Assembly: GCA_963169855.1 (NCBI GenBank)
Contig: CAUJCN010000002.1
Span: 452,885-516,884 of the forward strand
Reading direction: 5' to 3'
From: Patescibacteria group bacterium
GTDB taxonomy: Bacteria > Patescibacteriota > Dojkabacteria > J137
Length of the DNA: 64,000 nt
Of this stretch, positions 8,363-39,651 are shown in pieces (within the stretch, counting starts at the first letter, position 1; the number at the start of each line of letters is the position of its first letter). Under the pieces are notes generated by a model. The model was not told where the DNA came from, ran no database searches, and worked only from the letters and a program-made list of their open reading frames with translations. The position numbers and the translations under genes are program-made.

Positions 8363-8404
8363 TTAATTAGAAACTATGCTCTAATTGCTTACTCAGAGTT
8401 AAAG

Positions 8405-8437: not shown

Positions 8438-8512
8438 TAAAAAAACTTTTAGTATATAATCAAATTTACTTACGCAAGACCCTGGAAATTTTGTCTAAGA
8501 TTCAAACTTATT

Positions 8513-9907: not shown

Positions 9908-9949
9908 TTTTTAAACTTTCTGTAGTATAATAATGGTTATATTGTTTAT

Positions 9950-12174: not shown

Positions 12175-12235
12175 CTATTAATGAAATTTGAGCATTGGGC
12201 TGCAATACAATTTTTGAGAGAAAGTACTCCTTGAG

Positions 12236-13341: not shown

Positions 13342-13629
13342 TTAGTAAACTCCAATCTCATCTATACTTGGAAATATAGTTCTAAGCAAACCTATAAACT
13401 TATCTGCTAATTTGCCCGAATAGCTTCCATAACCTGATCCTTCTGAAGTTCTACATAATTCATCATTGTATTTGTTCACTACTTCCATAAACTTCTCCCC
13501 AACTTCGTTGAACTCTTTTCTATATTTATCGGGCTCTTCAGTAAATTTAGTATGAATGTCTGTAAATTGAGTCCAAAGTTCACCGTTTTCTTCTACAAGT
13601 TTTTTTAATGTTGTTTGATATTTGGTCAT
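13342..13629 (-). CDS. Hypothetical protein (95 aa), coupled to the upstream gene through a 1-nt overlap
   Basis: Intact ORF. Its start overlaps the stop of 13629-14480. Confidence 0.4.
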   Translation of the reverse strand: MTKYQTTLKKLVEENGELWTQFTDIHTKFTEEPDKYRKEFNEVGEKFMEVVNKYNDELCRTSEGSGYGSYSGKLADKFIGLLRTIFPSIDEIGVY

Positions 13630-14480
13630 TAGTAATTATGAGTAATAGTTCTATGATGCGGCTTTAAACCTTGCAAAGTTTTAGAAGCCTTCCATATTAT
13701 ACTATCTAAAACGATAGGATTAATACCATGAATATAGGCAAGCTCTTGAATCGCTACTATTGAGGCACCTCTTATTTCAATCTCCTGAGGGGAACCTTCT
13801 TCTAGGTATAGGCCTGCATCAATAATTTGCTGAAGTTCTTCGGAATATTCTAAGATCCCTATACTATTCAGAAATTGTGGAATTCGATAGTCTGCTAATC
13901 CTGTTAGCGACTTATATACATTGAATGCCGTAATTTTATCTCTAAAAGAATAAATTAAAGCTTGAATTCTTTTGTAAAAATATACTTTCCCGAAACCTGG
14001 AGAGACTCTCTCATCTCGATACTGCGGCATTTTTTTTGTCATATCTTCAATTAAACACTCAATATCGCTAAAAGAGTTTAAGTAATTTTCGATATTAAAT
14101 TGAATAGATTCTAGAAAAGTTATAGTTTCTTGGATAAAGTGAAAACGTTCTTCAGTTAAATACAATGGAGAAAAAACTTCTTTAAATTCTTGTAAGGATA
14201 GAGATTTAAAACCGTCAAATTTTATCTTATTGTACAAAGCTAAAAGTCTTTCTTTTACAACACCCGTGTTTAATGATTGTGAACTATCAAAATTCCAAAA
14301 GCAGAAGTTAATAGCAGAAAAAAGCAATCTAATATCATCGTCCAGCATTGCTTCCGGGGTAACCTCCTCCGAACCAAACTTCTCCCAGTACTCCGTAAAT
14401 GCGTGATAATTCCTCCTGTTGATGGCAACAGAATGAGATTTTTCAGTGATTTTGTATGCAGATTCTAATACCCGATCCAC
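13629..14480 (-). CDS. Hypothetical protein (283 aa), possibly a DUF2419 / Qng1-like queuosine-salvage hydrolase
   Basis: The length, the all-alpha character and an ADYRIPQ-type motif are reminiscent of DUF2419, but this assignment is from memory and is unverified. Confidence 0.3.
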   Translation of the reverse strand: MDRVLESAYKITEKSHSVAINRRNYHAFTEYWEKFGSEEVTPEAMLDDDIRLLFSAINFCFWNFDSSQSLNTGVVKERLLALYNKIKFDGFKSLSLQEFKEVFSPLYLTEERFHFIQETITFLESIQFNIENYLNSFSDIECLIEDMTKKMPQYRDERVSPGFGKVYFYKRIQALIYSFRDKITAFNVYKSLTGLADYRIPQFLNSIGILEYSEELQQIIDAGLYLEEGSPQEIEIRGASIVAIQELAYIHGINPIVLDSIIWKASKTLQGLKPHHRTITHNY

Positions 14481-21021: not shown

Positions 21022-24000
21022 TTAATTATTACTATCTTCTACTAAATTGAATCCACGATCATCAACTGTTTCAACAACAATTTTTGATTCGTTTCCTACT
21101 GAATCAACGATTTCTTCAAGAGCCATATCGTCTCTAGTATCATCGTATTCAGCACTTAACTTTTCCAGCTTAATTCCCAATCCTGCAAGTTCTTTATCAA
21201 GAACGTTGAATGATTCTGGAATATATGGAGCAGTTATCTTTTGACCTGTGATGATTGCCTTGTAAGCTGCTGCTCTTCCAACAACATCGTCAGACTTAAT
21301 TGTTAACATTTCGTGTAGTACATTTGGTACTCCATGTGCTTCAAGTCCCCAAACTTCCATTTCTCCGAATCTTCTTCCTCCCTTCTGAGCTTTTCCTCTT
21401 ACAGGTTGCTGAGTAACAAGAGTGTACGGTCCAGTAGATCTAGCATGAACCTTATGGTCTGCTAAGTGGTCCAGCTTGAAGTAATATTTTACTCCAACTG
21501 TTACTTTCTGAGAGTATCTTTCTCCTGTTCTTCCATCGAATAAGTCTACTTTTTCTTCATAATCTACTCCATTATCTTTAGCCATTTGCATTAATTTATC
21601 CAAAGAGTATTCTGCAAAAGGTTGAATTTCAACTTTTACTCCTAATTTCTTTGCCAATGCTCCGATATGAGTTTCGATAAGCTGTCCAAGGTTCATTCTT
21701 CGAACCATAGATGCAGGTCCTATCAACACATCAACAGGATGACCGTCTGCTGTATGAGGCATGTCTTCAACTGGAACAATCTTTGTAACAACTCCCTTAC
21801 CTCCGTGGAAGTCAGTTAGCTTATCTCCGATTGAAATTTTATGAGTTTTTGCAACCCAAACTTTGATTTGCTTCAAAGCTCCAGCGTTTAATTTAGCTCC
21901 CTTTTCTCTGTCCAAAACCTGAACTCCGATAACAACTCCGTGCTCTCCGTTAGGCATTCTCAATGAGTTGTCTCTAACATCTCTAGCGTATTCTCCGAAG
22001 ATTGCTCTCAACAACTTTTCTTCTGCAGTTAACTCAGTTTCTCCCTTTGGAGCGATAATTCCGCAAAGAATATCGTTTGACTGAACACTTGCTCCTAATC
22101 TTACAATTCCTTGTTCATCAAGATTTCTTAATGTGTATTCTCCAACACCTGGGATATCTCTAGTGATTTGTTCATTTCCTAATTTTGTTTCTCTAACTTC
22201 CTGAATATATTCCTGAATATGGATAGAAGTTAAGATATCTTGTTTTACCAATCTATCGCTAACAACAATTCCGTCTTCGAAGTTATATCCATCGTAAACA
22301 ACATAAGCTGCTCTTAAGTTTACACCTAATGCCAACTCTCCATTATCAGTACACGGTCCATCAACTAAGATGTCTCCTTTCTTGAATGTCTGACCAGGCA
22401 TTACAACTGGCTTCTGGCTGAAACAAGTGTTTTGGTTAGTTCTTACAAATTTTTCAATATTGTATCTTTGTTTTCTTGATTTTGATCCTGCGTATTCAAC
22501 AACAACTTTTGCTGAATCAGCTTCAATTACTTTTCCATCTTCTTCTGCAAAGATTGATCTTCCAGATGCTTTAGCAGCGTCTCTTTCAAATCCAGTTCCA
22601 ACAATAGGAGCTTCAGATCTAATTAGAGGAACAGCCTGAGTCTGAGTTTTAGCTCCGATCAAAGTTCTGTTAGGGTCATCGTTTCCAGCAAATGGAATTA
22701 ATGATAGACCTAATCCAGCAATCTGACTTGGAGAAACGTCGATCAAATCGATCTTTGATGTTTCTACTTTTGCATATCCCTGACCTTCTCTAACATAAGC
22801 CATGTAGTCTGTAATGTTTCCTTCTGAGTCTGTTTTTGTACTCGAACTAGCAATACTATGTAATGCCTCATTGTCTGCATCTAAATATTCAACTTCAGTT
22901 TTGTTTACAAAAGGAACAATTCCAACTGCATCAACTTTTGCCTTCTTTGCTTTTTCTACAACTTCTGCAGTCAACTCTACTCCATCCTTAACGAATGAGT
23001 TTCCTTTTGTCATTCTTCCTTTGAATTTCTTTACATCGTCTTTTGCAAGATCGAACTTTGTAACAACTCTAAAGTAAGGAGCTTCTAGGAATCCGTAGTC
23101 ATTAATTCTTGAGTAAATAGCCAATTGGTTAACCATACCGATTGATGGTCCTTCTGGTGTAGTTACTGGACAAAGTCTTGAATAGTGAGAATTGTGAACG
23201 TCTCTAACTGAGAATGTTGCTCTTTCTTTTGTAAGACCTCTTGGTCCTCCAGCAGAAATTTTTCTCTTAACTTCAAGTTCAGAAAGAATGTTTGTCTGAT
23301 CCATGAATCTCATCAATGCTGAGCTTCCAAAGAATTGGTTTACAGCAGACATAATTGGTCTTGTATTGATAAAAACAGCTGGTGTAACTTTCTCATCTGT
23401 TGAGTAAGTTGCCATCTTATCTCGAATATTCTTTTCCATTAAAAGCATTCCTGCTCTTAGCTTTTCTGAAACTAATTCATCCACTCCTCTAATTCTTCTA
23501 TTTGTTAATGAATCAATGTCGTCAGGAGCTTGTAATCCGCTATTTAATCTAACTAGAGATTTAATGACTTCAACAATATCTCTTTTCTTTAGAATATAGT
23601 CAGCAATTTGGATATCTTCGTCAATTCCTAACTTCTTGTTCAACTTATATCTTCCAACTTTTCCTAAGTAGAATCTTCTCTTGTTGAAGAAAATGTTATC
23701 AATCAATGCTTTTGCATTTTCGATTGAAACTGAATCTTCTGGTCTTAATTTTCTGTAGATGTCGATTAATGCCTCTTCTGTATTCTTAGTTGGGTCTTTT
23801 CTTAAAGTTGCTTCTAAGAAACTATTCTCTTCTGTTCCTAATCCACCTAACGCTTTCTGAATTTCTGCATCAGAGCTATATCCTAGTGCTCTCATTAATG
23901 TTGTTAACAAGATTCTTGGTCTCTTTTGTAGAAGTTTGATGCTCATTACTCCGTATTTGTTTACTTCGAATTCATACCAATTTCCTCTATGAGGCATTAA

Positions 24001-24525
24001 CTTTACGCTGTAAAGTTTCTTCTTTGTTGTTGATGATTTGCTTTCAGAGAATAAAAGACCTTCTGATCTTAAAATCTGGAAAACAACAACTCTTTCATTA
24101 CCATTGATCATGAATGATGCTCTATCGCTCATCAAAGGCATGTCGCATAGGTAAAGTTTCTGTTTCTTAATTTCACCACTCTTCTTATTAACTAACTTCA
24201 CATTTACATGAACAGGAGCGTCATAAGTTTGACCTAAGTTCTGTGCGTCTAAAAAGTTAATTTTTGGTTCTCCCCAAGAAATATCTTCGAAGAAGAGTTC
24301 CCATGAAGTACCTGTATAGTCTTTAATTGGATTAATTTCATCGAATAGTTCTTCGAATCCGTTTTCCATAAATTGTCTGAAGAATTTTTTCTGCGCATCT
24401 AAGAAGTCAACATCTAAATGCGGAAGGGGATTTTTTGTAAGAGTTACTCTCTCTGAGTTTGGATTAGTTGCTTTTTTAGCCATACTGCTTTTGTTATAAC
24501 AGGCAAAAAAATTGCGTATTAACAA
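21022..24525 (-). CDS. rpoB: DNA-directed RNA polymerase subunit beta
   Basis: 1167 aa. The conserved rif-region and C-terminal GGQRFGEMEVWALEAYGA-like motifs are present. The gene lies immediately upstream of rpoC. Confidence 0.95.
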   Translation of the reverse strand: MLIRNFFACYNKSSMAKKATNPNSERVTLTKNPLPHLDVDFLDAQKKFFRQFMENGFEELFDEINPIKDYTGTSWELFFEDISWGEPKINFLDAQNLGQTYDAPVHVNVKLVNKKSGEIKKQKLYLCDMPLMSDRASFMINGNERVVVFQILRSEGLLFSESKSSTTKKKLYSVKLMPHRGNWYEFEVNKYGVMSIKLLQKRPRILLTTLMRALGYSSDAEIQKALGGLGTEENSFLEATLRKDPTKNTEEALIDIYRKLRPEDSVSIENAKALIDNIFFNKRRFYLGKVGRYKLNKKLGIDEDIQIADYILKKRDIVEVIKSLVRLNSGLQAPDDIDSLTNRRIRGVDELVSEKLRAGMLLMEKNIRDKMATYSTDEKVTPAVFINTRPIMSAVNQFFGSSALMRFMDQTNILSELEVKRKISAGGPRGLTKERATFSVRDVHNSHYSRLCPVTTPEGPSIGMVNQLAIYSRINDYGFLEAPYFRVVTKFDLAKDDVKKFKGRMTKGNSFVKDGVELTAEVVEKAKKAKVDAVGIVPFVNKTEVEYLDADNEALHSIASSSTKTDSEGNITDYMAYVREGQGYAKVETSKIDLIDVSPSQIAGLGLSLIPFAGNDDPNRTLIGAKTQTQAVPLIRSEAPIVGTGFERDAAKASGRSIFAEEDGKVIEADSAKVVVEYAGSKSRKQRYNIEKFVRTNQNTCFSQKPVVMPGQTFKKGDILVDGPCTDNGELALGVNLRAAYVVYDGYNFEDGIVVSDRLVKQDILTSIHIQEYIQEVRETKLGNEQITRDIPGVGEYTLRNLDEQGIVRLGASVQSNDILCGIIAPKGETELTAEEKLLRAIFGEYARDVRDNSLRMPNGEHGVVIGVQVLDREKGAKLNAGALKQIKVWVAKTHKISIGDKLTDFHGGKGVVTKIVPVEDMPHTADGHPVDVLIGPASMVRRMNLGQLIETHIGALAKKLGVKVEIQPFAEYSLDKLMQMAKDNGVDYEEKVDLFDGRTGERYSQKVTVGVKYYFKLDHLADHKVHARSTGPYTLVTQQPVRGKAQKGGRRFGEMEVWGLEAHGVPNVLHEMLTIKSDDVVGRAAAYKAIITGQKITAPYIPESFNVLDKELAGLGIKLEKLSAEYDDTRDDMALEEIVDSVGNESKIVVETVDDRGFNLVEDSNN

Positions 24526-24683
24526 TTCGAATTAATTGTAAACACGCAAGTTAGCTTGTAAATATTACTGATCTATAAACCATCAGGGGTTTAAGTTTTT
24601 GAGAAATGATTCATGATTATAGCAAAGAAAATGTAGTGAGGTCAAGAAAATAGCCACGAAAAATGGCATCTTTTGAAGATTCT

Positions 24684-25352
24684 TTACTGCTTTTTAAGCC
24701 AATCCGTTGGATCTATGTTATTCACAGTTTGTCCTGATTCAACTTTAATTGTTAATACTTTACCAGAAAGTTGATCTTTATTGCAATTAGCCTCGCCTTT
24801 TTCTTTAACGCACTTAACGAATTCTGTGTACCGTGCAGTATATTCGAGGTTCAAAGAATTGTTTGAAGTAACAATATTTGACATCAAATTATAGTTTCCA
24901 CTTGGTAAAACCAAAGTAAAATCTGACTCGTAAGCTGAAACAGTTACGCAGTATTTTGTACTAGAATTGTTTGTACTTTGAGCACAAACTAATTGATATT
25001 GGCTAAACGATGAATCCCCAACCAATAATGGGAAAATTGAACCCTTGATAGTTCCGTATCCATTCTTAATCTGCCTTTGGAGTTCCGTATCTAATTCAGC
25101 ATTCTCAGCTTTAAGTCTCTCAACTTCGGAATTAAGCTCTCTAAAACTACCTTGAAGGTTATCGATAGTTACCTGACTTTCTTCCTGATTACTATTTAAA
25201 AGCACAGTCGTATCTCTGTATGCACTATTAATATCATTCAATTCTTTAGTTTTTGTATAAAGAAGAACTGCTAAAACAATACTCACTATCACAAAAAATA
25301 AATACAAACCAATTAATAGAATTTTTCTCAGAAGATGAAGAAATTTTTTCAT
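24684..25352 (-). CDS. Membrane-anchored coiled-coil hypothetical protein (222 aa)
   Basis: The N-terminal TM segment ILLIGLYLFFVIVSIVLAVLL is followed by a coiled-coil segment (EVERLKAENAELDTELQRQ). The gene overlaps the upstream gene by 4 nt (ATGA). Confidence 0.45.
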   Translation of the reverse strand: MKKFLHLLRKILLIGLYLFFVIVSIVLAVLLYTKTKELNDINSAYRDTTVLLNSNQEESQVTIDNLQGSFRELNSEVERLKAENAELDTELQRQIKNGYGTIKGSIFPLLVGDSSFSQYQLVCAQSTNNSSTKYCVTVSAYESDFTLVLPSGNYNLMSNIVTSNNSLNLEYTARYTEFVKCVKEKGEANCNKDQLSGKVLTIKVESGQTVNNIDPTDWLKKQ

Positions 25353-25882
25353 AATTCAATAGTAATTTTTACAGTTTCCCACAGACCTGATGCTGCAGAC
25401 GGAAGGAATTCTACTCCGAAAGTTTCTGGCTGGCCAGATTCGGTTATTAGAATTTGTCTATTATTAGAATTACTTACTTCGAAAACTGAATCATTTTTTT
25501 TGAATCTCATTCCTAAAGTATCAAGACTCGCTCCACTAAAAGTGTACGATCCATAAAATGGTTCATTTTGATTACTTACTAAATTGAGGATATTTTGTGA
25601 TCGTGTATTACCATCATTCAAGAAACTGATTGTATACACAAATCTTGAGTCAGAATATCTCTCCAAACTTGTCCTAAACTCGAACACATCCTCAGAAATG
25701 TTTGTGATTGTCGGAAATATAGTTGCCTTGTTTGCCTCAGAATCTGATGCCCCTAAAATTGAGCTATTACCATCGTTCTTTGGGTTAAGAGAGAAAACTG
25801 TCAAGAATGTAAATCCGTAAATGCCCAGGATAGCTGATAACAGCACTGCTGTTTCGGTAAATCTTATCGCTCCTTTAAACAT
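25349..25882 (-). CDS. Hypothetical secreted or membrane protein (177 aa) with a pilin-like hydrophobic N-terminus
   Basis: The N-terminus MFKGAIRFTETAVLLSAILGIYGF resembles a class-III (prepilin-type) signal but is not canonical. Confidence 0.4.
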   Translation of the reverse strand: MFKGAIRFTETAVLLSAILGIYGFTFLTVFSLNPKNDGNSSILGASDSEANKATIFPTITNISEDVFEFRTSLERYSDSRFVYTISFLNDGNTRSQNILNLVSNQNEPFYGSYTFSGASLDTLGMRFKKNDSVFEVSNSNNRQILITESGQPETFGVEFLPSAASGLWETVKITIEL

Positions 25883-25912
25883 TGAATTTTCTTAACTAAT
25901 TATATAGTATAT

Positions 25913-26509
25913 GTGCATATGAAAAATTTCAAGATAGTTCCGACAATATTGGTGGCATTTGCTTTCGGAAGCTTATTTTTAAACCCTGTTTCCACAGAAG
26001 CACTTGAAAGAATATCCACCGAGCTTAAAGAGTATACTCAAAATCCAGAATCTCAAATTGTTAAATACGAAATGATTCTCTCCTCCGAAGTCAGATCAGA
26101 CAATGTGCGAGTGACTTGGACTTTACGAGGAAATGCAAAATTTGTTGATAGCACAAAATCCACAAGAAGATTTGGAGTCGAGACAGGAGAAACATATACT
26201 GTTCCAATCGAGATTTCACCTACAGGACAAGGAACAGCTGAACTTGTGGGAGTTGCTGAAGTATTTCAAATTGACGGAACTCTAACTTCAACAGTAAGAA
26301 CAAACTTTGGATTTAACAGTGCCTGGGAAAAATTACCAATCACAGAAGATTACACAAACTCAAAAAATCTAAGCAATGTAAAAAGAGTTTTAACAACTGT
26401 TGGAGTTTTTGTTGCCGTTGGAGCTGTTGGCTATTTTGGATTTAGAAGATTCAAAAAATGGTATTCAAAGACACCAGAAGTTAAGTTCGAAGAAGTCTCC
26501 GCAATCTAG
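25913..26509 (+). CDS. Hypothetical surface protein (198 aa) with a signal peptide and a C-terminal TM anchor
   Basis: N-terminal signal-like IVPTILVAFAFGSLFL. The C-terminal hydrophobic segment LTTVGVFVAVGAVGYFGF is followed by RRFKKW. Confidence 0.45.
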   Translation: MHMKNFKIVPTILVAFAFGSLFLNPVSTEALERISTELKEYTQNPESQIVKYEMILSSEVRSDNVRVTWTLRGNAKFVDSTKSTRRFGVETGETYTVPIEISPTGQGTAELVGVAEVFQIDGTLTSTVRTNFGFNSAWEKLPITEDYTNSKNLSNVKRVLTTVGVFVAVGAVGYFGFRRFKKWYSKTPEVKFEEVSAI

Positions 26510-29405: not shown

Positions 29406-30041
29406 TTATTCTGGAAGTTCGCCTGTTTTAATAGGATCTAGAACTAAATCCAAGTAACTCTGGGCAATAGAGTAGAGTAGATCTACTTTTCTGATATCAA
29501 TATTTGTAGATTTAGAGAACTCAATAGTTATCTCTTTTGAGTTTTTCTTGGGGTTCTGATCAATAAATTTTATGAATTCTTCCAATGTCTCGTATTTGAT
29601 GGAGCCTAGTAGCGGCGATGTTGATGCTTCAGAAGCGAGATAATTAGTTAGATTCTCTTTAAACAATCTTTCCGAAGACAATCTATAAATTCTACTGAAA
29701 CAATATCCAGCAGCTAGCCATGCAACAAAAATGTATACTCCTGCACGTGGTGTGTCTACATATTTTATCAAAAGATATAAAATGATGAAAAGGGCTACAT
29801 TCATTGCTCCTAAATAGTTATAGAGATTCAATCTATTACTTTTGTACTGAAAAATCTGAGGCTTTGATAAACTTTTTTCCTCAATATTGGTCTGTTTTCT
29901 TTCGAAGTTGAATACCATCAAAATCGAAGATGTAAAAAATGCGAATTCTACCAATGTAAACGTATAGTTTCCAAAAGCATTGAGTACAAAAGCTATAAAG
30001 CAAATAGCCAGTGTTACAAAGTAAAGCTGAAGTCTGTTCAT
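29406..30041 (-). CDS. Integral membrane hypothetical protein (211 aa, about 4 TM helices)
   Basis: Multiple hydrophobic helices in the N-terminal two thirds of the protein. Confidence 0.45.
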   Translation of the reverse strand: MNRLQLYFVTLAICFIAFVLNAFGNYTFTLVEFAFFTSSILMVFNFERKQTNIEEKSLSKPQIFQYKSNRLNLYNYLGAMNVALFIILYLLIKYVDTPRAGVYIFVAWLAAGYCFSRIYRLSSERLFKENLTNYLASEASTSPLLGSIKYETLEEFIKFIDQNPKKNSKEITIEFSKSTNIDIRKVDLLYSIAQSYLDLVLDPIKTGELPE

Positions 30042-30043
30042 AA

Positions 30044-30730
30044 TTGAATAAAAATCCTTTATCTAATAATATATCTAATATGAGAATTTGTCCTGCAATC
30101 CTAACTAATAATGAAGCTCACTTCAGCGAGCTACTGAGAAGTTTCCAGATTTTTGAGGAAATAGATATAGATCTGATTATCCCTGGAAATCTTACCCCAG
30201 AGAAAAAAACTGTTGGGATCGAATTTGTTATTAATGAAATTTCTCGATTCCAAAGTAAGCGATACAAGATTCATCTAATGTGTGATTTTCCATTCGAGGA
30301 AATCAGAAAAGTTATAGACAAAGTTGGATTCTTGGACTTAACCTTTATTATTCATCAAGAGAGTAGCTTTGACATGATGGATGTTGAAAAATGTAAAACG
30401 CCAATAGGCATTGCATTAGAATTCACCACGAAATTAAAGGACATTTACTATTATGAAAACTTTGCTTTAGTGCAAATTATGACAGTTGAGATAGGTGGAC
30501 AAGGAAATGCATTCGAACCGAAGGCAATGAATAAGGTAACAGAATTGAGGGATTTAGGGTATGATAGAGATATTGAAATCGATGGTGGAATTAATCTCGA
30601 CACAATAAGTTACATTGCGAAATTCCCAATAGATATACTTTCTGTTGGATCTTATTTCACAAAATCCTTGAATGTACTAGAAGACAAAAGACTTTTAGAA
30701 GACGAAATAGAATTAATTCTTAAGAAATAG
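30044..30730 (+). CDS. Divergent TIM-barrel protein resembling ribulose-phosphate 3-epimerase
   Basis: The N-terminus ICPAILTNNEAHFSELLRS (compare RPE IAPSILSADFA.LG.EV) and the C-terminus DGGINLDTI...ILSVGSYF (compare the RPE DGG...GA...V.GSAIF) resemble the epimerase. The similarity is weak. Confidence 0.35.
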   Translation: MNKNPLSNNISNMRICPAILTNNEAHFSELLRSFQIFEEIDIDLIIPGNLTPEKKTVGIEFVINEISRFQSKRYKIHLMCDFPFEEIRKVIDKVGFLDLTFIIHQESSFDMMDVEKCKTPIGIALEFTTKLKDIYYYENFALVQIMTVEIGGQGNAFEPKAMNKVTELRDLGYDRDIEIDGGINLDTISYIAKFPIDILSVGSYFTKSLNVLEDKRLLEDEIELILKK

Positions 30731-30732
30731 TT

Positions 30733-32007
30733 ATGCCAACAATTACAGAATTACCAAAGAAAAGTATTACAACAGAGATTCCGCAGAAAAAATCAAAGAT
30801 AGTTCAGAATGTGACTTTCTTTGGAGATTCAGCAATTCCAGAAGGTGATGCGATTTATAATTCAGTTTTTGATGCAGCGAAATTGCTTGCAACAAATGGA
30901 TATACAATTGTAGATGGAGGCGGCCCTGGAATTATGAAAGCAGCAACAGATGGAGCGGAATCAGTAAATGGCAATACTGTTGCGGTTTACTGGGAACCAA
31001 AATTAGCAGCTTTTTTTGAAGGGAAGAATCTAGCAAACCTTGCCGATAAATCGTTAGCAGAATCTAACTATGTGATGAGAACTTTTGGTTTAATAGAACA
31101 GGGAGATGTTTTCGTTGTGTGCAAAGGGGGAACAGGAACAATTTCCGAATTTGGATTAGTTTGGTGTTTAGGAAAACTATATTACGGATGCCACAAGCCT
31201 GTAATTTTATATGGAGATTTTTGGGACGAATTGATTGCCGCATTTCAGAAAACTATGTATATAGATGATGTCGAAATGGCTGTATTGCATAGAGCAAAAA
31301 CGCCAGAAGAATTAGCTGAGTTAATAGAGTCTTTCGAAACAGTATTCGCACACTGCGTTACTGTCGATAACAGAGCTTCAGACGAATTGGCATTCATTAT
31401 AAATGCAAGGAGAGACAAAACTGCAGAAAGTTACGACAAATTTGCATCAGAATATCATGCTTCAAGAATTGGAACACTGCCTTCTCAAACACAGTTGGAT
31501 GAATTCATTGAGCTAGTTCATTCCCCAGCTAGAGTCTTGGATATTGGTAGCGGAACCGGTCAAGACATTGCTTATCTTTCTCAAAAATATTCTACTGATG
31601 GATTAGAAATATCTAAGCGAATGGTTGAGATTTCTAAACTTGAAAGTCCTCACAGCAATATTGTTCAAGGTGATTTAGTAACTAAAGATATCGGTACAAA
31701 TAAATACAAAGGAATTTGGAGTAGAGATGCTATTCATCATATTCACGAAGAAGAATTAGACAATGTTTTCAAAAAGATTTCTAACGCACTTGTGGAAGGT
31801 GGAATCTTCTACTGCTTGGTTAGAGAAGGTGAAGGTGAAATCGTGGAGAATGAGGATAAAGGATATGGAAAAATGGAACGTTTCTATCATTTATTTTCAT
31901 CTGCAGAATTAATCGAGAGAGCAGAGAAGGCAGGGTTAGAATTAGTAAAGTTAGATAGAAACAAAAGAAGTCACATGTGGTTGATTGGAGTCTTCAGAAA
32001 AAAGTAA
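30733..32007 (+). CDS. Fusion protein. The N-terminal LOG-family (TIGR00730-like) Rossmann domain is joined to a C-terminal class I SAM-dependent methyltransferase.
   Basis: LOG motifs VDGGGPGIMKAATDGA and VCKGGTGTISEFGLVW. The methyltransferase motif I VLDIGSGTGQDIAYL and a post-I acidic region follow later. The gene lies 3 nt downstream of the epimerase-like gene. Confidence 0.55.
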   Translation: MPTITELPKKSITTEIPQKKSKIVQNVTFFGDSAIPEGDAIYNSVFDAAKLLATNGYTIVDGGGPGIMKAATDGAESVNGNTVAVYWEPKLAAFFEGKNLANLADKSLAESNYVMRTFGLIEQGDVFVVCKGGTGTISEFGLVWCLGKLYYGCHKPVILYGDFWDELIAAFQKTMYIDDVEMAVLHRAKTPEELAELIESFETVFAHCVTVDNRASDELAFIINARRDKTAESYDKFASEYHASRIGTLPSQTQLDEFIELVHSPARVLDIGSGTGQDIAYLSQKYSTDGLEISKRMVEISKLESPHSNIVQGDLVTKDIGTNKYKGIWSRDAIHHIHEEELDNVFKKISNALVEGGIFYCLVREGEGEIVENEDKGYGKMERFYHLFSSAELIERAEKAGLELVKLDRNKRSHMWLIGVFRKK

Positions 32008-32049
32008 TTTTCCTCAATTAATTTTAAGCATTAAAAAACCCGCCATTGG

Positions 32050-32076
32050 CGGGTTAAAGAATTAAAAAAAGTGAAA
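32050..32076 (-). terminator. Rho-independent terminator of the histone-like gene, a GC-rich hairpin (AACCCGCC-ATT-GGCGGGTT) followed by a T6 run on the minus strand
   Basis: A perfect 8-bp stem lies immediately 3' of the stop codon at 32077-32079. An A-run on the + strand corresponds to the T-run on the - strand. Confidence 0.6.
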
Positions 32077-33362: not shown

Positions 33363-34280
33363 ATGTTAAAAAATTTAGTAATAGCTGTTGTAGTTATTGC
33401 GTTGGTAGCAGGAGCTTTTTCGATTATTAACGGGCAAAAAAAAGATTCTTTTTTCTTAATCCGAGAAGAAGGCGATATCTTTTTTAAAAATACTGAGACG
33501 GAGTCTTACCTAACACTTTCTCAAGACGAGATTTCTCTTCAAAATGGTAGTTATATTAAAACAGGAGAATTCTCTTCGGCACATGTTATTCTTCCAGATA
33601 ATACTGTAATTTCTTTAGACGAGAAGACTGAATTGCAAATCAATCTTGCAGATGAAGGAATCGAGATCTTCCAGTTTCTTGGAAAAACATGGAATAGGGT
33701 AGAAACACTTACAAACGGAAAAAAATTCGAAATTAAATCTGGCGACGCCGTTGCTGCAGTTAGAGGAACAATTTTTCACTTTGAAGTAAATGCCGATGGG
33801 ACAAAAGGAATAAAAGTTGTCGAGCACTCAGTTGCGTTAAGCAATACTGCACAGGAGATTCTTACTAATGAAGAGGAGAGTGGAGTTGTTAGTGTTGAGG
33901 GCAAAATTACCAAAGGGACTATTCCAGAATCATTCTTGAAATCAAGATGGTATATCAGAAATAAAGTTTTGGATCAAATTAAACGAACAGGATTAGATAA
34001 TATTTTTTTGAAAGACAAGATTAAAAAAGAATTTATTAGGGATGAGCTAGTTCAGACTAGATTCAATATCAAAGATACTAGTGTTCAATCTTCTTTATTA
34101 TCTATTGTTATTGATACAAGTGACTCGACTGTTTGTTCGAAAACTGCAGAAATCCCTCCTTATGTGAAATACTCTAAATTTGGTGAATTATATGAAGCTT
34201 TCCTAGGAAGTTGTGCTGATAACAGACTCGAAGAAGTTGAAATCAAGGAATTGGCAAGAATCTACGCCACAATAAAATGA
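33363..34280 (+). CDS. Membrane-anchored protein with a possible FecR-like domain
   Basis: N-terminal TM VIAVVVIALVAGAFSII. The beta-rich segment ...GDAVAAVRGTIFHFEVN resembles FecR-domain strands. The gene overlaps the downstream cyclase gene by 4 nt. Confidence 0.35.
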   Translation: MLKNLVIAVVVIALVAGAFSIINGQKKDSFFLIREEGDIFFKNTETESYLTLSQDEISLQNGSYIKTGEFSSAHVILPDNTVISLDEKTELQINLADEGIEIFQFLGKTWNRVETLTNGKKFEIKSGDAVAAVRGTIFHFEVNADGTKGIKVVEHSVALSNTAQEILTNEEESGVVSVEGKITKGTIPESFLKSRWYIRNKVLDQIKRTGLDNIFLKDKIKKEFIRDELVQTRFNIKDTSVQSSLLSIVIDTSDSTVCSKTAEIPPYVKYSKFGELYEAFLGSCADNRLEEVEIKELARIYATIK

Positions 34281-36175
34281 GAAGAATAGGGATCTACCTA
34301 CTCATCTGCATCTTTGTAATTCCAATCGTTCTATCAGAACCGATAAAAAATTTAAATTTTCTTTTTACTGATAGACTTCATAATTCTGAACCACGCTCAG
34401 AAATTGTTGTCGTTGGGATTGATGATAAGTCACTCCAAAATATAGGTGCTTGGCCATGGAGTAGAGGTGTATTTGCAGATTTTTTGGGTAATCTGATGGA
34501 AGTGAATCCATCTGTAGTTGGGTTCGATGTGATTTTTGGAGAGAGCAGAGAAGGTGATTTAGAACTTCAAAATATTATAGATGTGAATCCAAATAAAATT
34601 GTTTTTGGAAGCAAAGTCATTGATAACAACGAAGTCATAAAACCGGTTTTTAATGTCGCTTCCGGATACGTCAATTTTGTCCAAGACGAGGACGGCAAGA
34701 TTCGAAGAAATACTCCTTTTACTGTGATCGACTCGGTTTGTGAAACCAGTTTCTCATTCAAAATTTTTCTGAGGTATCTTTTTGTACAAAATTTTGTGTG
34801 CGACGAATTAAAATTGAGGAACAAATTTTATCCTTCCGTAAACAATCGTGTTTCTCCAGAATTTACAAAAGAGCAGTTTAAAACAATAAGTTTTGTTGAT
34901 GTTCTAAACAAAAATTTTAAATCTGAGGATTTTAAAAACAAGATAGTTTTGGTGGGTTCCACAGCCATCGATCTTCGTTCAAGTTTAAACGATAATTTTA
35001 CCGATATTTTTGGAAATGCAGTTCCAGGAGTTGCGATTCATGCCAATATTATTAATGGATTTTTAAACGATGATTTACTTAAAGAAGTGGACTACAGTTA
35101 TTCAATTTTGATTCCTCTTTTAATTTCGGTATTTCTATTTGCTATATTTACTAAGTCGGCAAACAAGACTTTGAATCTTTGGTTATTTATAGTTTTGTTC
35201 GTGATCTTGAATCTGATTCTATTGGTTGCAATTGAATTCAATTTCTTACCTGATTTCGTAACTCCTAATGTTTACTTAATCCTTGCATTCGCTTCTTCAG
35301 TTATTCTTAAGTTTTTTGTTCAAAAGAAAGAAAAAGAGTTTGTTGAATTGGCATTCGAACAGTATATGAACAAGAAATTATTGAATGAATTAAAGAAGTC
35401 CCCTCATAAACTGAATCTTGGAGGAGAGACTAAAGAGATCAGCGTTCTATTTAGTGATATTCGAGGATTTACATCTATTTCTGAAAAATTGGATGCTCAT
35501 GGGTTGATTACCTTCATAAACAGTTACTTGGAACACATGAGCAAAATAATTTTGGAGAACGAAGGAACTATCGATAAATATATTGGAGATGCAATTATGG
35601 CTATTTGGAATGCACCTATTGATGTTGTAAATCATGCAGAATTTTCTGTTTTAGCAGCTTTAGCAATGCAAGAAAGCACAGAACAATTTTCAAGTAAGTT
35701 TCCAAATCTACCTAGAATTAAAATTGGAATCGGAATAAATACTGGGAATGTAGTTGTTGGAAACCTGGGTGGGTCGATGCGGTTTGACTACACTGTTATT
35801 GGTGACGATGTTAATTTAGCTTCGAGAGTAGAAAGTCTTACTAAAAAGTATAATTGTACGATTCTGGTGACTGAGAATACTAAAAAGTTGGTTTTGAATG
35901 AAAATATTAAATTTAGGCAAGTAGACGAAGTAATCGTAAAGGGCAGAAGTACCCCGGTCAAAGTTTACGAACCTTACATTGAAGAACGCCCATATTTCAC
36001 TATTTATGAAAAAGCATTTGTATTCTACCAAAATGGAGATTTTCAAGAATCGATTAATGCTTTAAAATCCATCTTAGAAGATCCTGTATCTCAAACTCTT
36101 TTGGAGAGATGCGAAAACCTTATTTTAAATCCACCAAAAGATTGGAATGGATGTTGGGAATGGGACGAAAAATAA
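34277..36175 (+). CDS. CHASE2-sensor membrane-bound class III adenylate/guanylate cyclase
   Basis: An N-terminal TM and periplasmic CHASE2-like region is followed by 3 TM helices. The cyclase catalytic domain then has VLFSDIRGFTSISE...YIGDAIMAIW...GINTGNVVVGNLG...YTVIGDDVNLASRVES. Confidence 0.75.
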   Translation: MRRIGIYLLICIFVIPIVLSEPIKNLNFLFTDRLHNSEPRSEIVVVGIDDKSLQNIGAWPWSRGVFADFLGNLMEVNPSVVGFDVIFGESREGDLELQNIIDVNPNKIVFGSKVIDNNEVIKPVFNVASGYVNFVQDEDGKIRRNTPFTVIDSVCETSFSFKIFLRYLFVQNFVCDELKLRNKFYPSVNNRVSPEFTKEQFKTISFVDVLNKNFKSEDFKNKIVLVGSTAIDLRSSLNDNFTDIFGNAVPGVAIHANIINGFLNDDLLKEVDYSYSILIPLLISVFLFAIFTKSANKTLNLWLFIVLFVILNLILLVAIEFNFLPDFVTPNVYLILAFASSVILKFFVQKKEKEFVELAFEQYMNKKLLNELKKSPHKLNLGGETKEISVLFSDIRGFTSISEKLDAHGLITFINSYLEHMSKIILENEGTIDKYIGDAIMAIWNAPIDVVNHAEFSVLAALAMQESTEQFSSKFPNLPRIKIGIGINTGNVVVGNLGGSMRFDYTVIGDDVNLASRVESLTKKYNCTILVTENTKKLVLNENIKFRQVDEVIVKGRSTPVKVYEPYIEERPYFTIYEKAFVFYQNGDFQESINALKSILEDPVSQTLLERCENLILNPPKDWNGCWEWDEK

Positions 36176-36176
36176 T

Positions 36177-37607
36177 ATGGGAGAAAATAGAGGAGAGGAC
36201 AACTTTGAGGAAGAAATAGATTTAGATGCTACACAATTATCACCAATAATCGTAGAAGAATTTGTGAATGAATCGGAGGTTTTGAAAGAGTATGAATTTC
36301 GTAATTACTTATTCTCTGGGTTAAATATTCCGTTGGGAATGCAATGCATTCTAGAAAGTCTTTTTGTTCTTTACATAAACAGCAAACCCTATGGTAACTT
36401 ACTTATTTCAGAATTTAGCTCGTTTGTATTAGATAAGATTGCTGGATATTTTAACGATGCTAACGATCCCGAATTTCCTAAGCCACTTTCAGAATCCATG
36501 ATAAGCTTGACTCTGGAATCTGGAGTACACGATAGGCTGGACGAAATAATGACAAGACATCTTGCTAACATGTCTATCGCAGAAGTTTCTCAGATAATAA
36601 ACAATTTAAAAAGCAATTACATATTAATTAATGGAGGATATGATCCTTACGAAACAGCTAGGTTATCCGCAGAAGATACTCAAGAATTTCAAGCTGTTAA
36701 ACCTTTTACTTTTACAGTTTTAGATTTCGATAAAATTGCTACGGGAGGTGCTTTAAATTTTGGTTTCACCAAATTCTTATCGAGCTACATTAGTCGTTAC
36801 GATTTGGAAAGAGAGGATGATGCTGGATTTAAACGTGTAGACTTCGCAGAATTCGAAGCATTAATAATCCAAGATTTCGTAGATGCCAGAACTACAATCG
36901 AAGAAAGGTTCGAAAAGCTCAAAGATGGAGCCGACCAAAGCGAAACAGCTCAAAACTTACTTCGGTACAGGATCGTTACCGACCTGATTCCAAAGATTTA
37001 CTTTCCAGCAAATCAAGAGTCACCGGATGCAGCTTATGCATTCATATTTGAATTGTTAACAATGTATCCACAGATGCTAGAAGAGGAATTCCGAAAACTT
37101 GAACAACTTCTTCAGCAACAGGTTATAGTTCACACACCAAAAGAAATGTTAGATTCTACATTGCGACAAATGGATGGTTTCGCTAACTTTAGATATACAA
37201 TGGAAAGTACCTATGATAGGAATTATTCTATGAGTCAAACATTTCTCACAATTTTAAATTGGATAGATACATCCTCTCAGCCAAATCTTGGATACTACTT
37301 CATGTATGTTTATGTTTGCTATAAAGCTTTACTAAATGTTGACATAGAGGAGGGGATTGTGACCGAAAGTATTTGGGATTTCGAAGCTACAGCTTTAGTT
37401 GATTTGTATGAGAAAGCCATAGAAGAAGATCCTAAGAACTGGGTTAAAATTGCTTACGAAAGTTTCAGAGACGAAGCATTTGTATATTTGAATGGAGCAA
37501 GAGAATTTGGGCATATTGATAACGACATGTTTGTAAGAATCTCTGATGGACTTAAACATTTTCAAACAATGTTTATGGAAAGAATGAAAGTTCTGATGGA
37601 GACTTAA
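36177..37607 (+). CDS. Hypothetical cytoplasmic protein (about 476 aa) immediately downstream of the cyclase
   Basis: The ORF-track start at 36147 overlaps the cyclase gene by 29 nt. The ATG at 36177, 1 nt after the cyclase stop, is the more likely start. No recognisable motif. Confidence 0.45.
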   Translation: MGENRGEDNFEEEIDLDATQLSPIIVEEFVNESEVLKEYEFRNYLFSGLNIPLGMQCILESLFVLYINSKPYGNLLISEFSSFVLDKIAGYFNDANDPEFPKPLSESMISLTLESGVHDRLDEIMTRHLANMSIAEVSQIINNLKSNYILINGGYDPYETARLSAEDTQEFQAVKPFTFTVLDFDKIATGGALNFGFTKFLSSYISRYDLEREDDAGFKRVDFAEFEALIIQDFVDARTTIEERFEKLKDGADQSETAQNLLRYRIVTDLIPKIYFPANQESPDAAYAFIFELLTMYPQMLEEEFRKLEQLLQQQVIVHTPKEMLDSTLRQMDGFANFRYTMESTYDRNYSMSQTFLTILNWIDTSSQPNLGYYFMYVYVCYKALLNVDIEEGIVTESIWDFEATALVDLYEKAIEEDPKNWVKIAYESFRDEAFVYLNGAREFGHIDNDMFVRISDGLKHFQTMFMERMKVLMET

Positions 37608-37651: not shown

Positions 37652-38920
37652 ATGAGTTTACCCAATTCACCTATAAAAGGAACTGCTGACTGGTTTCCAG
37701 AAGAGTTCAAAATTAGAAAGTATATATTCGATAACTGGAGAAAAGTCTGTGCGTCTTTTGGATACGAAGAATACATGACTCCACTTGTGGAAGATGTAGC
37801 TATCTACAAAGCTAAGTCTGGAGACGAAGTTGGGGGAGTGGAACTGTGGACAATTGAACGAGAAAATGAAGCTTATGCGATTAGACCAGAAATGACACCA
37901 AGTGTAACTAGAATGGTTACAAGATTTTATGAATCGAAGCCAAAGCCTATCAGATTATTCTCGGTTGCAAACTTCATGCGATTTCAGAAACCTCAACGAG
38001 GTAGAAACAGAGAATTCTGGCAATTGAATTTTGATATTTTTGGATCAGAAAAAATCGAAGCTGATATCGAAATTCTTCAAATGGCGTTAGAAATTATGAA
38101 GAGTTTTAATCCTCCAGCAGGATCGTTCACAATGTTTGTAAATGATAGAGTCTTAATTGACTACATTCTATCTGTGGAGTGCGGAGTTGCTGATGAGAAA
38201 AGAAAAGAAGTGGTGAGATTGATGGATAAATCAGAAAAGATGAAAAGAGAGGATTTTGGAACAGCTTTAGAAGAAGTTGGAGTTTCATCTGCTGGGGTTC
38301 AAGCACTGGTTGATTTTTTAAATATTAAAGAAGCCGATAAACTAGTCGAGAGATTTCCTGCGGTTGCAGATAATCTTGGGTTTACAAGAATCATGAAGAT
38401 TCTTGAAAGTCTTAACATTAGAGGATATGGTAATTGGGTTAAATTTCAGCCAAACATTATCCGTGGATTTGATTATTACGATGGAATGGTTTTCGAAGTC
38501 TTTGATAATCATCCTGAAAACAATCGATCGCTTTTTGGAGGAGGACGTTACAATGGACTAGCAGGGATTTTTGGAAAAAATTCCTTCCCTGCTGTTGGAT
38601 GTGCTCCTGGCGACGAAACTTTGAGACTATTCTTAGAGAGTTGGGATTTGTTAGGACAAATGAAAAAAGAAGAATCATATTTCTTACCAAGATTAGCGGG
38701 AGTTTCGGATGAATCTTTTGAAAAACTAGCTTCTAAGTTGAGAGGTGAAGGAAAAATTCTAGTTACAGGATTAGAAGAATCAGGGTTAATGAAAGCTTTC
38801 GATTTTGGAGAGAAGAGAGGAATGAGTTACGTAATAATCTTTGGTGAAGAAGAAAATTCAAAAAGAATTTATAAAGTTAGAGACCTTAAGACAAGAGAAG
38901 AAAAGGAGTTTAGTTTGTGA
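37652..38920 (+). CDS. hisS: Histidine--tRNA ligase (class II aaRS)
   Basis: The N-terminal KGTADWFPEE, motif 2 FRPEMTPS...RFQKPQRGRNREFWQLNFDIFG and motif 3 GGGRYNGL are HisRS-specific signatures. Confidence 0.8.
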   Translation: MSLPNSPIKGTADWFPEEFKIRKYIFDNWRKVCASFGYEEYMTPLVEDVAIYKAKSGDEVGGVELWTIERENEAYAIRPEMTPSVTRMVTRFYESKPKPIRLFSVANFMRFQKPQRGRNREFWQLNFDIFGSEKIEADIEILQMALEIMKSFNPPAGSFTMFVNDRVLIDYILSVECGVADEKRKEVVRLMDKSEKMKREDFGTALEEVGVSSAGVQALVDFLNIKEADKLVERFPAVADNLGFTRIMKILESLNIRGYGNWVKFQPNIIRGFDYYDGMVFEVFDNHPENNRSLFGGGRYNGLAGIFGKNSFPAVGCAPGDETLRLFLESWDLLGQMKKEESYFLPRLAGVSDESFEKLASKLRGEGKILVTGLEESGLMKAFDFGEKRGMSYVIIFGEEENSKRIYKVRDLKTREEKEFSL

Positions 38921-39651
38921 TAGATAGAAAATACTGGACTGAGCAGACGACTGGGTTTCTTCGTACCACTGCATTTATTAACTCCATTCGCGGTGTTATT
39001 GATCAGAATGCTCCCTTGCCAGTTTTCCTGGTTGATGCTGGATGTTCCGAAGGCGTGAGTACAATTGAACTTCGAAGTTTATTCCCGACCTCTCATGTAG
39101 TTTATGGAGTCGATATAAATTTAGAAGCAGATGCTGATTACAGACAGAAGGAAAGAACAGTTCGAGCTTTAGTTAATCAAGGAGAACTGAACTCCGAAGA
39201 TACTAGAATGATTAAATTTTTAGAAAACGATTATTACAAACCAGTATTTAGAAGAAACTCTGTAGATATTTTTTTGATTTTAAATTCAATAAATTACCTT
39301 TATAGATTTCCTCACGATTTTAAAGACAAAATTCCATTTTTAGTACAGTGCCTTGGTAACGCAGCACTTTCTTTAAACCCAAATAAAGGAAGATTAATCT
39401 TAGGGAAGAACGGTAGGGACTCTAAGCCAGGAAATCAATCTCATCTTGATTACACTATTTTAGAAAGAGTAGGTGATGAAATTTCTCTTAAAGGAGATGA
39501 ACAATTTTACGCTGTTGGGGAAGTTCCCTATACAATGAAATTAGATTTTGCAGATGAGATGAATAAAGAGCTTAAATTTCGTATATATGGAGAATCCTAT
39601 TTAAGACGAAAAAGATCGATAGGTGAAATATCGCTGAATGAAGAAGCTTAG
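38917..39651 (+). CDS. Hypothetical protein (244 aa), possibly a SAM-dependent methyltransferase
   Basis: VFLVDAGCSEGVSTIEL resembles methyltransferase motif I. The gene overlaps the hisS stop (ATGA). Confidence 0.3.
   Translation: MIDRKYWTEQTTGFLRTTAFINSIRGVIDQNAPLPVFLVDAGCSEGVSTIELRSLFPTSHVVYGVDINLEADADYRQKERTVRALVNQGELNSEDTRMIKFLENDYYKPVFRRNSVDIFLILNSINYLYRFPHDFKDKIPFLVQCLGNAALSLNPNKGRLILGKNGRDSKPGNQSHLDYTILERVGDEISLKGDEQFYAVGEVPYTMKLDFADEMNKELKFRIYGESYLRRKRSIGEISLNEEA

Follow-up and report, generated by a model that had tools for sequence, protein, structure and literature searches.

The 64-kb stretch of chromosomal DNA analysed here (the window) comes from a Dojkabacteria-type bacterium within the candidate phyla radiation (CPR) and carries a two-gene unit in which a divergent ribulose-phosphate 3-epimerase (RPE) gene is followed by a gene that joins a LOG domain to a class I S-adenosylmethionine (SAM)-dependent methyltransferase (MT). 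We consider this RPE + LOG-MT pair to be, on balance, probably a remnant of a pentose phosphate operon in which LOG feeds the ribose of nucleotides into central metabolism. The pair is assigned to central carbon and nucleotide-ribose metabolism because both RPE and LOG belong to a glycolysis/pentose phosphate pathway (PPP) operon of other CPR bacteria. The original prediction, made from the DNA letters of the window, had seen in it a small nucleotide tailoring cassette; this does not appear to be the best reading, the epimerase being the orthologue of the operon RPE and LOG a fixed member of that operon.

The unit consists of the following elements.

30080..30730, plus strand: divergent RPE orthologue, 216 amino acids (aa), Pfam PF00834
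30733..32007, plus strand: LOG-MT fusion gene, 424 aa, no internal stop codon
30805..31347, plus strand: LOG domain, residues ~25–205, delimited by Pfam and NCBIfam matches and alignment to type II LOGs
31348..31416, plus strand: inter-domain linker, residues ~206–228, variable and gapped in the alignment
31417..32004, plus strand: class I SAM-dependent MT domain, residues ~229–424, delimited by Pfam, PDB and fold matches

RPE and LOG in Glycolysis/PPP Operons of CPR Bacteria

A scan of one genome per GTDB species yielded 142 relatives of LOG-MT, and the best 80 of these comprise 45 loci with the fusion and 35 with a stand-alone LOG. Open reading frames (ORFs) were called in 93 loci, RPE-like and LOG-MT genes were recognised with hidden Markov models of their alignments, and the remaining products were clustered, with representatives annotated by Pfam. 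The 35 stand-alone LOGs (41–51% identity) come from Woese-, Collier-, Chisholm-, Beckwith- and Daviesbacteria, among others. In Microgenomates their genes lie in a collinear order that reads triosephosphate isomerase (TIM), RpiB, phosphoglycerate kinase (PGK), glyceraldehyde-3-phosphate dehydrogenase (GAPDH), RPE, LOG, transketolase (TKT) N-terminal and C-terminal genes, class I fructose-bisphosphate aldolase (FBA), a PfkB kinase and a 2-hydroxyacid dehydrogenase. RPE is located immediately upstream of the stand-alone LOG in 27 of the 35 loci; RpiB is present in 28 of them, TKT in 26 and an MT gene in none. At the fusion loci, RPE lies directly upstream of LOG-MT in 24 of 45.

In two separate lineages, RPE and LOG are encoded by a single ORF. 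One is represented by protein P0140 (L007, 6001–7221; also found at L008, 2775–3995), in which RPE occupies residues 3–191 and LOG residues 227–402, with the RpiB gene ending 2 nt upstream; the other is found at L079 (5296–6582). The coupling of LOG-MT to an epimerase-like gene, which had been proposed from the window, is thus seen both as adjacency in fusion and stand-alone loci and as physical fusion in two lineages.

The most divergent LOG-MT loci (L049, L051 and L052; 49–53% identity) read RpiB-RPE-LOG-MT-TKT-TKT. The MT was therefore acquired before the gene left the operon. The rest of the fusion loci form two groups. In one, which includes the window, RPE and LOG-MT are preceded by genes for RecJ, HU, SufU and a membrane protein and followed by genes for RsmB and HisRS; in the other there is no adjacent RPE. 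Of the neighbours of LOG-MT, only the upstream RPE-like gene stays in place while the others change. Complete Dojkabacteria genomes with the pair are AP024679.1, CP129475.1, OZ246402.1 and OY969472.1.

Some further observations were made on these loci. Examples of the operon at loci L059–L093 span 261–11300 (L065), 1914–11500 (L066) and 1560–12500 (L093), and no transaldolase gene was seen in the operon loci of this series. With its FBA and PfkB kinase, the Microgenomates operon might sustain a sedoheptulose-bisphosphate bypass; the kinase is nearest to ribokinase, IolC, nucleoside-kinase and ribose-1-phosphate-kinase models, all of which score below their cut-offs. At L012 (463–5897), another close stand-alone LOG relative (P0271, 298 aa) follows genes for a ROK kinase, a GH15 glucoamylase, a GT5/GT4 glycogen-synthase-like protein and a GH57 protein, so that the context is again carbohydrate metabolism, not the PPP. 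In another Dojkabacteria genome (L006, 3724–4806), a Sua5/YrdC + TsaE fusion occupies the position of RPE immediately upstream of LOG-MT. Many records of “binchicken” metagenome-assembled genomes (L014, L018, L020–L022, L059, L060, L066 and others) are titled Saccharibacteria, Gammaproteobacteria or Pseudomonadales despite gene orders of the Dojkabacteria or Microgenomates type, and L049 is titled Doudnabacteria; such titles look unreliable as taxonomy.

The LOG-MT Fusion Is a Single Gene Conserved in Dojkabacteria

The joining of LOG and MT in one gene at 30733–32007 was confirmed: the ORF is uninterrupted, and the three motifs on which the domain assignment had been based are found at residues 62–68 (GGGPGIM), 131–139 (KGGTGTISE) and 268–277 (VLDIGSGTGQ). 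The distance to the RPE-like gene, first given as 3 nt, is in fact 2 nt, since the TAG stop codon of the upstream gene ends at 30730 and the ATG of LOG-MT is at 30733. For the RPE-like gene itself an alternative TTG start at 30044 would give a protein of 228 aa. The ATG at 30080 is the more likely start, because the TTG is only 2 nt away from the start codon of the divergently transcribed neighbour, all orthologues begin with M-x-I-x-PAILTN, and the ATG is also the start in public gene calls.

Among 5.8 billion proteins, a word-indexed search retrieved 213 homologues of LOG-MT. The best 120, which were inspected for size and domains, are all 411–446 aa long, have an identical domain set and are 55–84% identical to the query. 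A protein identical to that of the window is recorded on 7–8 contigs (the longest is 817,811 bp). All homologues with a reliable name belong to Candidatus Dojkabacteria (CPR/WS6), and the databases call them only “methyltransferase domain-containing protein” or “TIGR00725 family”. With 213 homologues, the same domains in the best 120 and 45 species-representative genomes carrying it, the fusion is neither a chance event nor an assembly artefact. A frameshift or a misread pair of genes was considered and ruled out by the full-length orthologues, as just one locus is split: at L055 (JYNZ01000003.1, WS6 bacterium OLB20), LOG-MT is broken into overlapping ORFs (5803–6948 and 6924–7274) at about profile position 309, within the MT domain, which is probably due to a frameshift or assembly error, a pseudogene being the other explanation.

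A profile search against 1.84 billion representatives at 50% identity found one full-length LOG-MT representative (P0046), along with fragments; one of these, P0136, clusters with a full-length member of 405 aa (P0310). The fusion is lineage-wide in Dojkabacteria, and among the top 150 profile matches no LOG-MT fusion was present beyond this family, a search in which independent, weakly similar fusions scoring below ~109 bits would escape. The other matches were single-domain, LOG-LOG, MT-MT or MT plus another domain; the tandem LOG-LOG and MT-MT proteins are a side observation. In agreement with the original prediction, neither the PDB nor the searched literature yielded a characterised LOG-MT fusion, and nothing relevant on a part of LOG in the carbon metabolism of CPR bacteria turned up in that literature either.

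When the proteins of Dojkabacteria are compared with those of the window, the LOG half has a median identity of 71%, the MT half one of 54.5% and RPE one of 36%. The LOG half is therefore the most conserved segment, and the RPE-like gene evolves much faster than its partner.

The LOG Half Keeps the Catalytic Residues of LOGs and Resembles Type II LOGs

Two overlapping Pfam families, which belong to one superfamily, match the N-terminal half: LDcluster4/SLOG (PF18306; residues 27–149, 48.3 bits against a cut-off of 26.3) and Lysine_decarbox/LOG (PF03641; residues 68–196, 42.5 bits against a cut-off of 27). The NCBIfam models TIGR00730 (52.8 bits, cut-off 96.35) and TIGR00725 (34.4 bits, cut-off 106.9) are matched below their cut-offs. 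The best solved relatives are the type II LOGs 5wq3, 5zi9, 9us2 and 1wek. In the alignment to type II LOGs, GGGPGIM falls on GGGPGLM, KGGTGTISE on PGGFGTLDE and MRT on ARK, so that the catalytic Glu and Arg occupy their expected positions.

Residue conservation was assessed in an alignment of 33 orthologues. In all of them G62–G66, M68, N112, Y113, R116 and T117 are invariant, as is the whole KGGTGTxSE block from K131 to E139, including Glu139. Arg116, within the NYxMRT sequence, corresponds to the Arg in the FFARK sequence of 5wq3 and in FFVRK of 5zi9. Relative to type II LOGs, the sole motif change is a Lys in place of the Pro of PGGxGT; the same Lys is present in the stand-alone CPR orthologues (pattern KGGTGT[IV]SE). 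Assignment of this domain to DprA or to a TIR-like SLOG is ruled out by the intact LOG motifs and catalytic residues and by the best solved relatives, which are LOGs. The N-terminal domain is accordingly a LOG proper, as had been predicted.

The LOG core is modelled by AlphaFold with a pLDDT of 80–94. The model is poor at residues 87–111, which are strongly conserved and correspond to IELPxEQxxNPY in type II LOGs. Residues 1–24 are disordered, and their sequence varies. In the linker, pLDDT is below 50 at residues 209–218 and 224–227, and because the full model has a pTM of 0.50, the geometry between the two domains is not reliably predicted.

Judged by these alignments, the LOG half is a type-II-like LOG with its catalytic residues intact; it most likely hydrolyses nucleoside 5′-monophosphates (NMPs) to base and ribose 5-phosphate, the reaction established for LOG and PpnN domains (PMC6717881).

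The MT Half Resembles Phosphoethanolamine N-Methyltransferases

The C-terminal half matches Pfam Methyltransf_23, Methyltransf_25 and Methyltransf_11 over residues 263–406 with 43–49 bits (cut-offs 21–27). In motif I (VLDIGSGTGQD), D270, G272 and G276 are invariant; an acidic residue (E/D) follows strand 2 in all orthologues, and D314 of the D(I/V) motif is present in 30 of 33. Further residue blocks are W329-x-R331-D332-x-x-H335-H336, R364-E365-G366, R383-F-Y385-H386 and R412-S-H414-x-W416.

By sequence, the best PDB matches are the Plasmodium phosphoethanolamine N-methyltransferases (PMTs) 4mwz, 4iv0 and 3uj6 (60–67 bits). By fold, they are generic small-molecule MTs (3e23, 5ufm and 3h2b; RPA2492, toxoflavin N-MT, Cg3271 and DhpI are the names given), 3e23 and 3h2b with target-normalised TM-scores of 0.8; the search of the full model against the PDB returned only such MTs, without a clue to the substrate. 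In the P. falciparum enzyme (PfPMT, 3uj6), Tyr19 and His132 form the catalytic dyad, and the phosphobase site is made up of Tyr27, Tyr160, Tyr175, Tyr181, Arg179 and Lys247 (PMC6705855); Arg127 and Asp128 are not discussed there. In the profile alignment with the 33 orthologues, Tyr27 (Y234), Arg127 (R331) and His132 (H336) have invariant counterparts. Asp128 corresponds to D332 (29/33), Tyr175 to Y378 (32/33), Arg179 to R383 (R in 26, K in six and Y in one) and Tyr181 to Y385 (Y in 29, F in four). Tyr160 falls on Val363 and is unmatched, and Tyr19 and Lys247 lie beyond the aligned region, likewise unmatched.

Other conserved basic residues are H335, R364 and H414, which are invariant, and R412, which is nearly so. 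Taken together, the conserved basic residues suggest an anionic, possibly phosphorylated, acceptor, and the MT half looks catalytically competent, with a basic pocket akin to that of PMT. It may N-methylate a phosphorylated small molecule or the purine base released by LOG, a suggestion we make with low confidence; a phosphorylated amine or a purine base would be our leading guesses for the acceptor.

The stand-alone proteins closest to the MT half form a large, uncharacterised family of ~205 aa, whose members have the fold and the EGxGE, RF and W motifs in common with it and lack R331, D332, H335, H386, R412 and H414. An NCBIfam scan of the closest of them gave no equivalog match, the best hit being to the DVU_1556 family, under the cut-off. 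The neighbours of the closest one (P0159) are ribosomal and RNA genes and are uninformative. As a side observation, relatives of the MT family are fused to NUDIX, adenosine deaminase, chloramphenicol-phosphotransferase (CPT)-like kinase and GNAT domains (P0208, P0224, P0179, P0167, P0212, P0156 and P0227), of which the NUDIX, adenosine deaminase and CPT-like kinase domains are nucleotide- or phosphoryl-handling partners.

The RPE-Like Gene Is an Orthologue of the Operon RPE

The upstream protein matches Pfam Ribul_P_3_epim (PF00834) with 58.8 bits (cut-off 21.1) and falls below the cut-offs of all NCBIfam RPE models (best PRK05581, 88.8 against 165; TIGR01163, 50.7 against 212.6). Its gene is the positional orthologue of RPE in the RpiB-RPE-LOG-TKT operons of CPR bacteria: RpiB and TKT flank RPE in L049, L051 and L052 and in most Microgenomates loci.

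Sequences from 25 Dojkabacteria and 29 Microgenomates orthologues were aligned with canonical and operon RPEs. In Dojkabacteria, both catalytic Asp residues are present in 25 of 25 and the second metal-binding His in 24 of 25; also retained are the Glu of HxE, the His within DVHLM and, in the canonical GG, DGG and GS motifs, the Gly/Ser positions. At the site of the first metal-ligand His, 23 of 25 have Asp; Gln stands in for the first Gly of the GG pair, and the VMDG block has lost its Asp. The change at the first His predates Dojkabacteria, as Gln is found there in 15 of the 29 Microgenomates orthologues. Compared with canonical Rpe (PF00834), therefore, the protein has in common the family match, both catalytic Asp residues and the retained motif positions; it differs in the replaced first metal His, the lost VMDG Asp and its fast evolution.

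A Proposed Role in the Use of Nucleotide Ribose

CPR bacteria (Patescibacteria) are thought to depend on metabolites scavenged from their hosts. Ribose 5-phosphate is the substrate of RpiB and, together with xylulose 5-phosphate from RPE, that of TKT.

We propose that the pairing of RPE with LOG is ancestral in this part of the CPR. By analogy with LOG/PpnN chemistry, LOG would hydrolyse the N-glycosidic bond of NMPs to yield the free base and ribose 5-phosphate, and the latter would serve as the entry metabolite for RpiB, RPE and TKT. LOG would in this way pass ribose from scavenged nucleotides on to the non-oxidative PPP and glycolysis, and the bases would become available for salvage. In Dojkabacteria, a class I SAM-dependent MT, an addition specific to this lineage, would then have joined the C-terminus of LOG within the operon, as L049, L051 and L052 suggest; later, RpiB and TKT would have disappeared from the vicinity in most Dojkabacteria, with RPE and LOG-MT staying behind. 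An entry enzyme is the simplest reading because an intact LOG is fixed between RPE and TKT and is at times fused to RPE. Both enzyme activities and the metabolic role in this scheme are those that homology and gene context would predict, the scheme itself being built on observed gene structure, domain identity, motif conservation, operon context and fusions. That CPR bacteria, notably Dojkabacteria, have a minimal metabolism and may live on nucleotide ribose has been proposed before (PMC5113843; PMC7304191).

Several points weigh against this reading. About 20 fusion loci have no adjacent RPE. The rest of the PPP is reportedly missing in most Dojkabacteria (PMC5113843), and no TKT was found on large contigs that carry RPE and LOG-MT among the top 120 matches, which is suggestive only; Dojkabacteria TKTs do exist, including one in OLB20 on a contig other than that of LOG-MT (P0338). 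The fate of ribose 5-phosphate and the role of an “orphan” RPE in this genome are left unexplained. Nor does ribose feeding by itself explain the fusion to MT or why a coupled RPE and LOG-MT is retained in genomes poor in PPP genes, and a new function could hide there. On the level of the protein, the TIGR00730 score below the cut-off and the Pro-to-Lys change mean that the range of substrates may not be the same as for known LOGs. Residues Y234, Y241 and H242 of the N-terminal MT helix are missing from the deep-branching fusions, three PfPMT residues (Tyr19, Tyr160 and Lys247) have no aligned counterpart in the MT half, and its fold matches are generic.

The tailoring cassette of the original prediction, in which the base or sugar phosphate set free by LOG is methylated by MT, with the RPE-like protein acting on the sugar phosphate, to give a specialised methylated metabolite or signal, strikes us as unlikely, with some evidence in its favour. 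More than 200 orthologues have LOG and MT physically fused, many conserved residues of the MT pocket are basic or aromatic, adenosine deaminase and NUDIX are further fusion partners of the MT family, and the pair persists in genomes that apparently lack the remaining PPP. However, the RPE-LOG pair is older than the MT and stands in the glycolysis/PPP operon of Microgenomates at loci that have no MT gene; no conserved tailoring, export or regulatory genes adjoin it in the 80 loci, and no methylated product is known. Tailoring is possible for crown Dojkabacteria, but does not explain the origin of the pair.

Three further readings are less probable still. That LOG-MT is an RNA-modification enzyme, with MT acting on tRNA or rRNA and the LOG/SLOG domain binding nucleic acid or nucleotide as in DprA/Smf-type SLOGs, is suggested by an RsmB/F-type rRNA methyltransferase near the gene in 12 of 45 loci, HisRS in 12 of 45, the Sua5-TsaE fusion at L006 and L035, and an LDcluster4/SLOG Pfam score slightly above that of Lysine_decarbox. 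We regard it as improbable: these neighbours are not kept in the deep-branching fusions or around the stand-alone orthologues, the catalytic Arg and Glu of LOG are invariant, an RNA-binding domain is absent, and the nearest relatives of MT are small-molecule MTs, Trm9 and METTL6 appearing only among many generic fold matches. We would give even less credence to a cytokinin-type LOG that activates an N6-modified adenine signal (cytokinin or an analogue) for modification by MT. The closest solved structures are annotated as cytokinin riboside 5′-monophosphate phosphoribohydrolases, and a LOG in a Saccharibacteria genome has been read in this way (PMC6031116); yet the solved bacterial LOGs owe the cytokinin name to homology-based deposition, isopentenyltransferase or other cytokinin genes occur in none of the 80 loci, the operon partners are enzymes of glycolysis and the PPP, and the named sources of related loci include groundwater, with no indication of plant association. 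Just as hard to credit is a genuine PMT that makes phosphocholine, for example for surface decoration, with a fortuitous fusion to LOG. It would account for the PMTs being the best PDB sequence matches and for the alignment of five of the nine phosphobase and catalytic residues of PfPMT (PMC6705855) with conserved ones, plus R127 and D128. It would not account for the three unmatched residues or for the fusion to LOG; no PMT-specific NCBIfam or Pfam model matches the protein, and choline or Lic-type genes are not among the neighbours.

A more speculative extension, which we put forward with considerable doubt, is that in Dojkabacteria without a PPP the RPE + LOG-MT pair constitutes an undescribed nucleotide route. 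LOG would cleave a (possibly modified) NMP, and N-methylation by MT would follow, either of the purine set free or of a phosphorylated intermediate; between episymbiont and host, the methylated product might be a signal, a base that is detoxified or excreted, or the precursor of a cofactor. The LOG clade with the Lys variant would then be a hydrolytic entry of ribose into CPR carbon metabolism, parallel to the RuBisCO/AMP-phosphorylase route.

Relation to Known Systems

The type II LOGs Cg1261 of Corynebacterium glutamicum (5wq3) and TT1465 of Thermus thermophilus (1wek), as well as 5zi9, have in common with the window protein a Rossmann-type LOG fold, the GGGPG(I/L)M motif, xGGxGTxxE with the catalytic Glu, the Arg of (A/M)R(K/T) and a similar length between motifs. 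The window protein differs from them in the Lys that replaces the Pro of PGGxGT and defines the CPR clade, in the C-terminal MT, and in its location in, or descent from, a PPP/glycolysis operon. In PpnN (YgdH) of E. coli, a LOG-type domain cleaves ordinary NMPs to base and ribose 5-phosphate; it is flanked by PAG1 (DUF4478) and PAG2 (DUF3412) domains, and the enzyme is regulated by (p)ppGpp (PMC6717881). NMP cleavage by a LOG-type domain, tying nucleotide pools to ribose 5-phosphate supply, is likewise our working model. In contrast to PpnN, the accessory domain of the window protein is an MT, and no Pfam match to DUF4478 or DUF3412 was found in it. With the PMTs (PfPMT 3uj6, P. vivax 4mwz and 4iv0, P. 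knowlesi 4iv8), the MT half has the (S/A)RDxxxH block in common; it is shorter (~200 against 266 aa) and fused to LOG, and identity in Foldseek structural alignments is ~16–19%.

The archaeal/CPR pathway of AMP phosphorylase, ribose-1,5-bisphosphate isomerase and RuBisCO likewise uses nucleotide ribose as a source of carbon and energy, including in minimal-genome organisms such as Dojkabacteria (PMC5113843). That route is phosphorolytic and proceeds via ribose 1,5-bisphosphate and ribulose 1,5-bisphosphate, whereas the proposed LOG route would be hydrolytic and lead via ribose 5-phosphate to RpiB, RPE and TKT. Genes of the RuBisCO pathway were not seen in the 80 loci annotated. To our knowledge, this pathway is the only nucleotide-ribose route described in CPR bacteria. 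If our proposal is true, the operon LOG is a second, hydrolytic entry point (NMP to ribose 5-phosphate), passed on to Dojkabacteria as RPE + LOG-MT, and the CPR annotations “LOG”, “lysine decarboxylase” and “cytokinin-activating” would move to central metabolism. The function of LOG-MT is probably important, because a bifunctional enzyme has been kept in organisms with ~600–1200 genes, and through its MT half a new acceptor of PMT-like methyltransferases may come to light.

The domains and the epimerase are of known families, and public databases already list the fusion, under generic names and with no member characterised. What appears undescribed in the searched literature is the Lys-variant LOG clade as a constituent of the CPR glycolysis/PPP operon, and the descent of the Dojkabacteria LOG-MT + RPE pair from that operon.

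Flanking Sequences and Other Features of the Window

The two-gene unit is bordered by the following elements.

29406..30041, minus strand: membrane-protein gene, divergent neighbour upstream of the RPE-like gene
30042..30079, no strand: short divergent intergenic region, presumed to contain the promoter of the unit
32037..32055, no strand: GC-rich hairpin CCCGCC-ATTG-GCGGG, between the LOG-MT stop codon and a convergent small ORF on the minus strand

A promoter scan around the pair found 13 promoter-like sites against 11.5 expected in the scanned region, with no convincing σ70 match above chance. The hairpin has a T-run on the minus strand only and is therefore terminator-like for that strand; it possibly acts in both directions, in which case the LOG-MT transcript would stop there. 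A tblastn search of the window for RpiB, TKT, GAPDH, PGK, TIM, FBA, PfkB and 2-hydroxyacid dehydrogenase found none of them, which says nothing about the whole genome.

The window is otherwise ordinary chromosome of a small-genome bacterium with low GC (~35%). Its gene content includes dnaA, rpoB/rpoC and genes for RNase J, RecJ, HU, SufU, HisRS, IF-2 and a Sua5-TsaE fusion. The latter (50428–51573, minus strand) joins Sua5/YrdC and TsaE, which function in t6A synthesis, in a single ORF. The dnaA gene is at 8513–9907 and the cumulative GC-skew minimum at ~24000–26000, about 15 kb away, between rpoB and recJ. Four ORFs have no Pfam match at E ≤ 1e-5: 6641–8362 (573 aa), 36147–37607 (486 aa), 38917–39651 (244 aa) and 58543–60015 (490 aa). 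A 628-aa ORF at 42072–43958 (minus strand) matches Glyco_hydro_1 over ~90 residues (113–204) only and may be a highly divergent or partial GH1-like protein. At 33363–36175 (plus strand), a gene with a FecR domain overlaps by 4 nt a gene with CHASE2 and adenylate/guanylate cyclase domains; the two resemble a sensor-cyclase pair, in a genome with few other signalling genes. Finally, a queuosine-salvage protein (Q_salvage, PF10343) is encoded at 13629–14480 on the minus strand, another function of nucleoside or base scavenging in this minimal genome.

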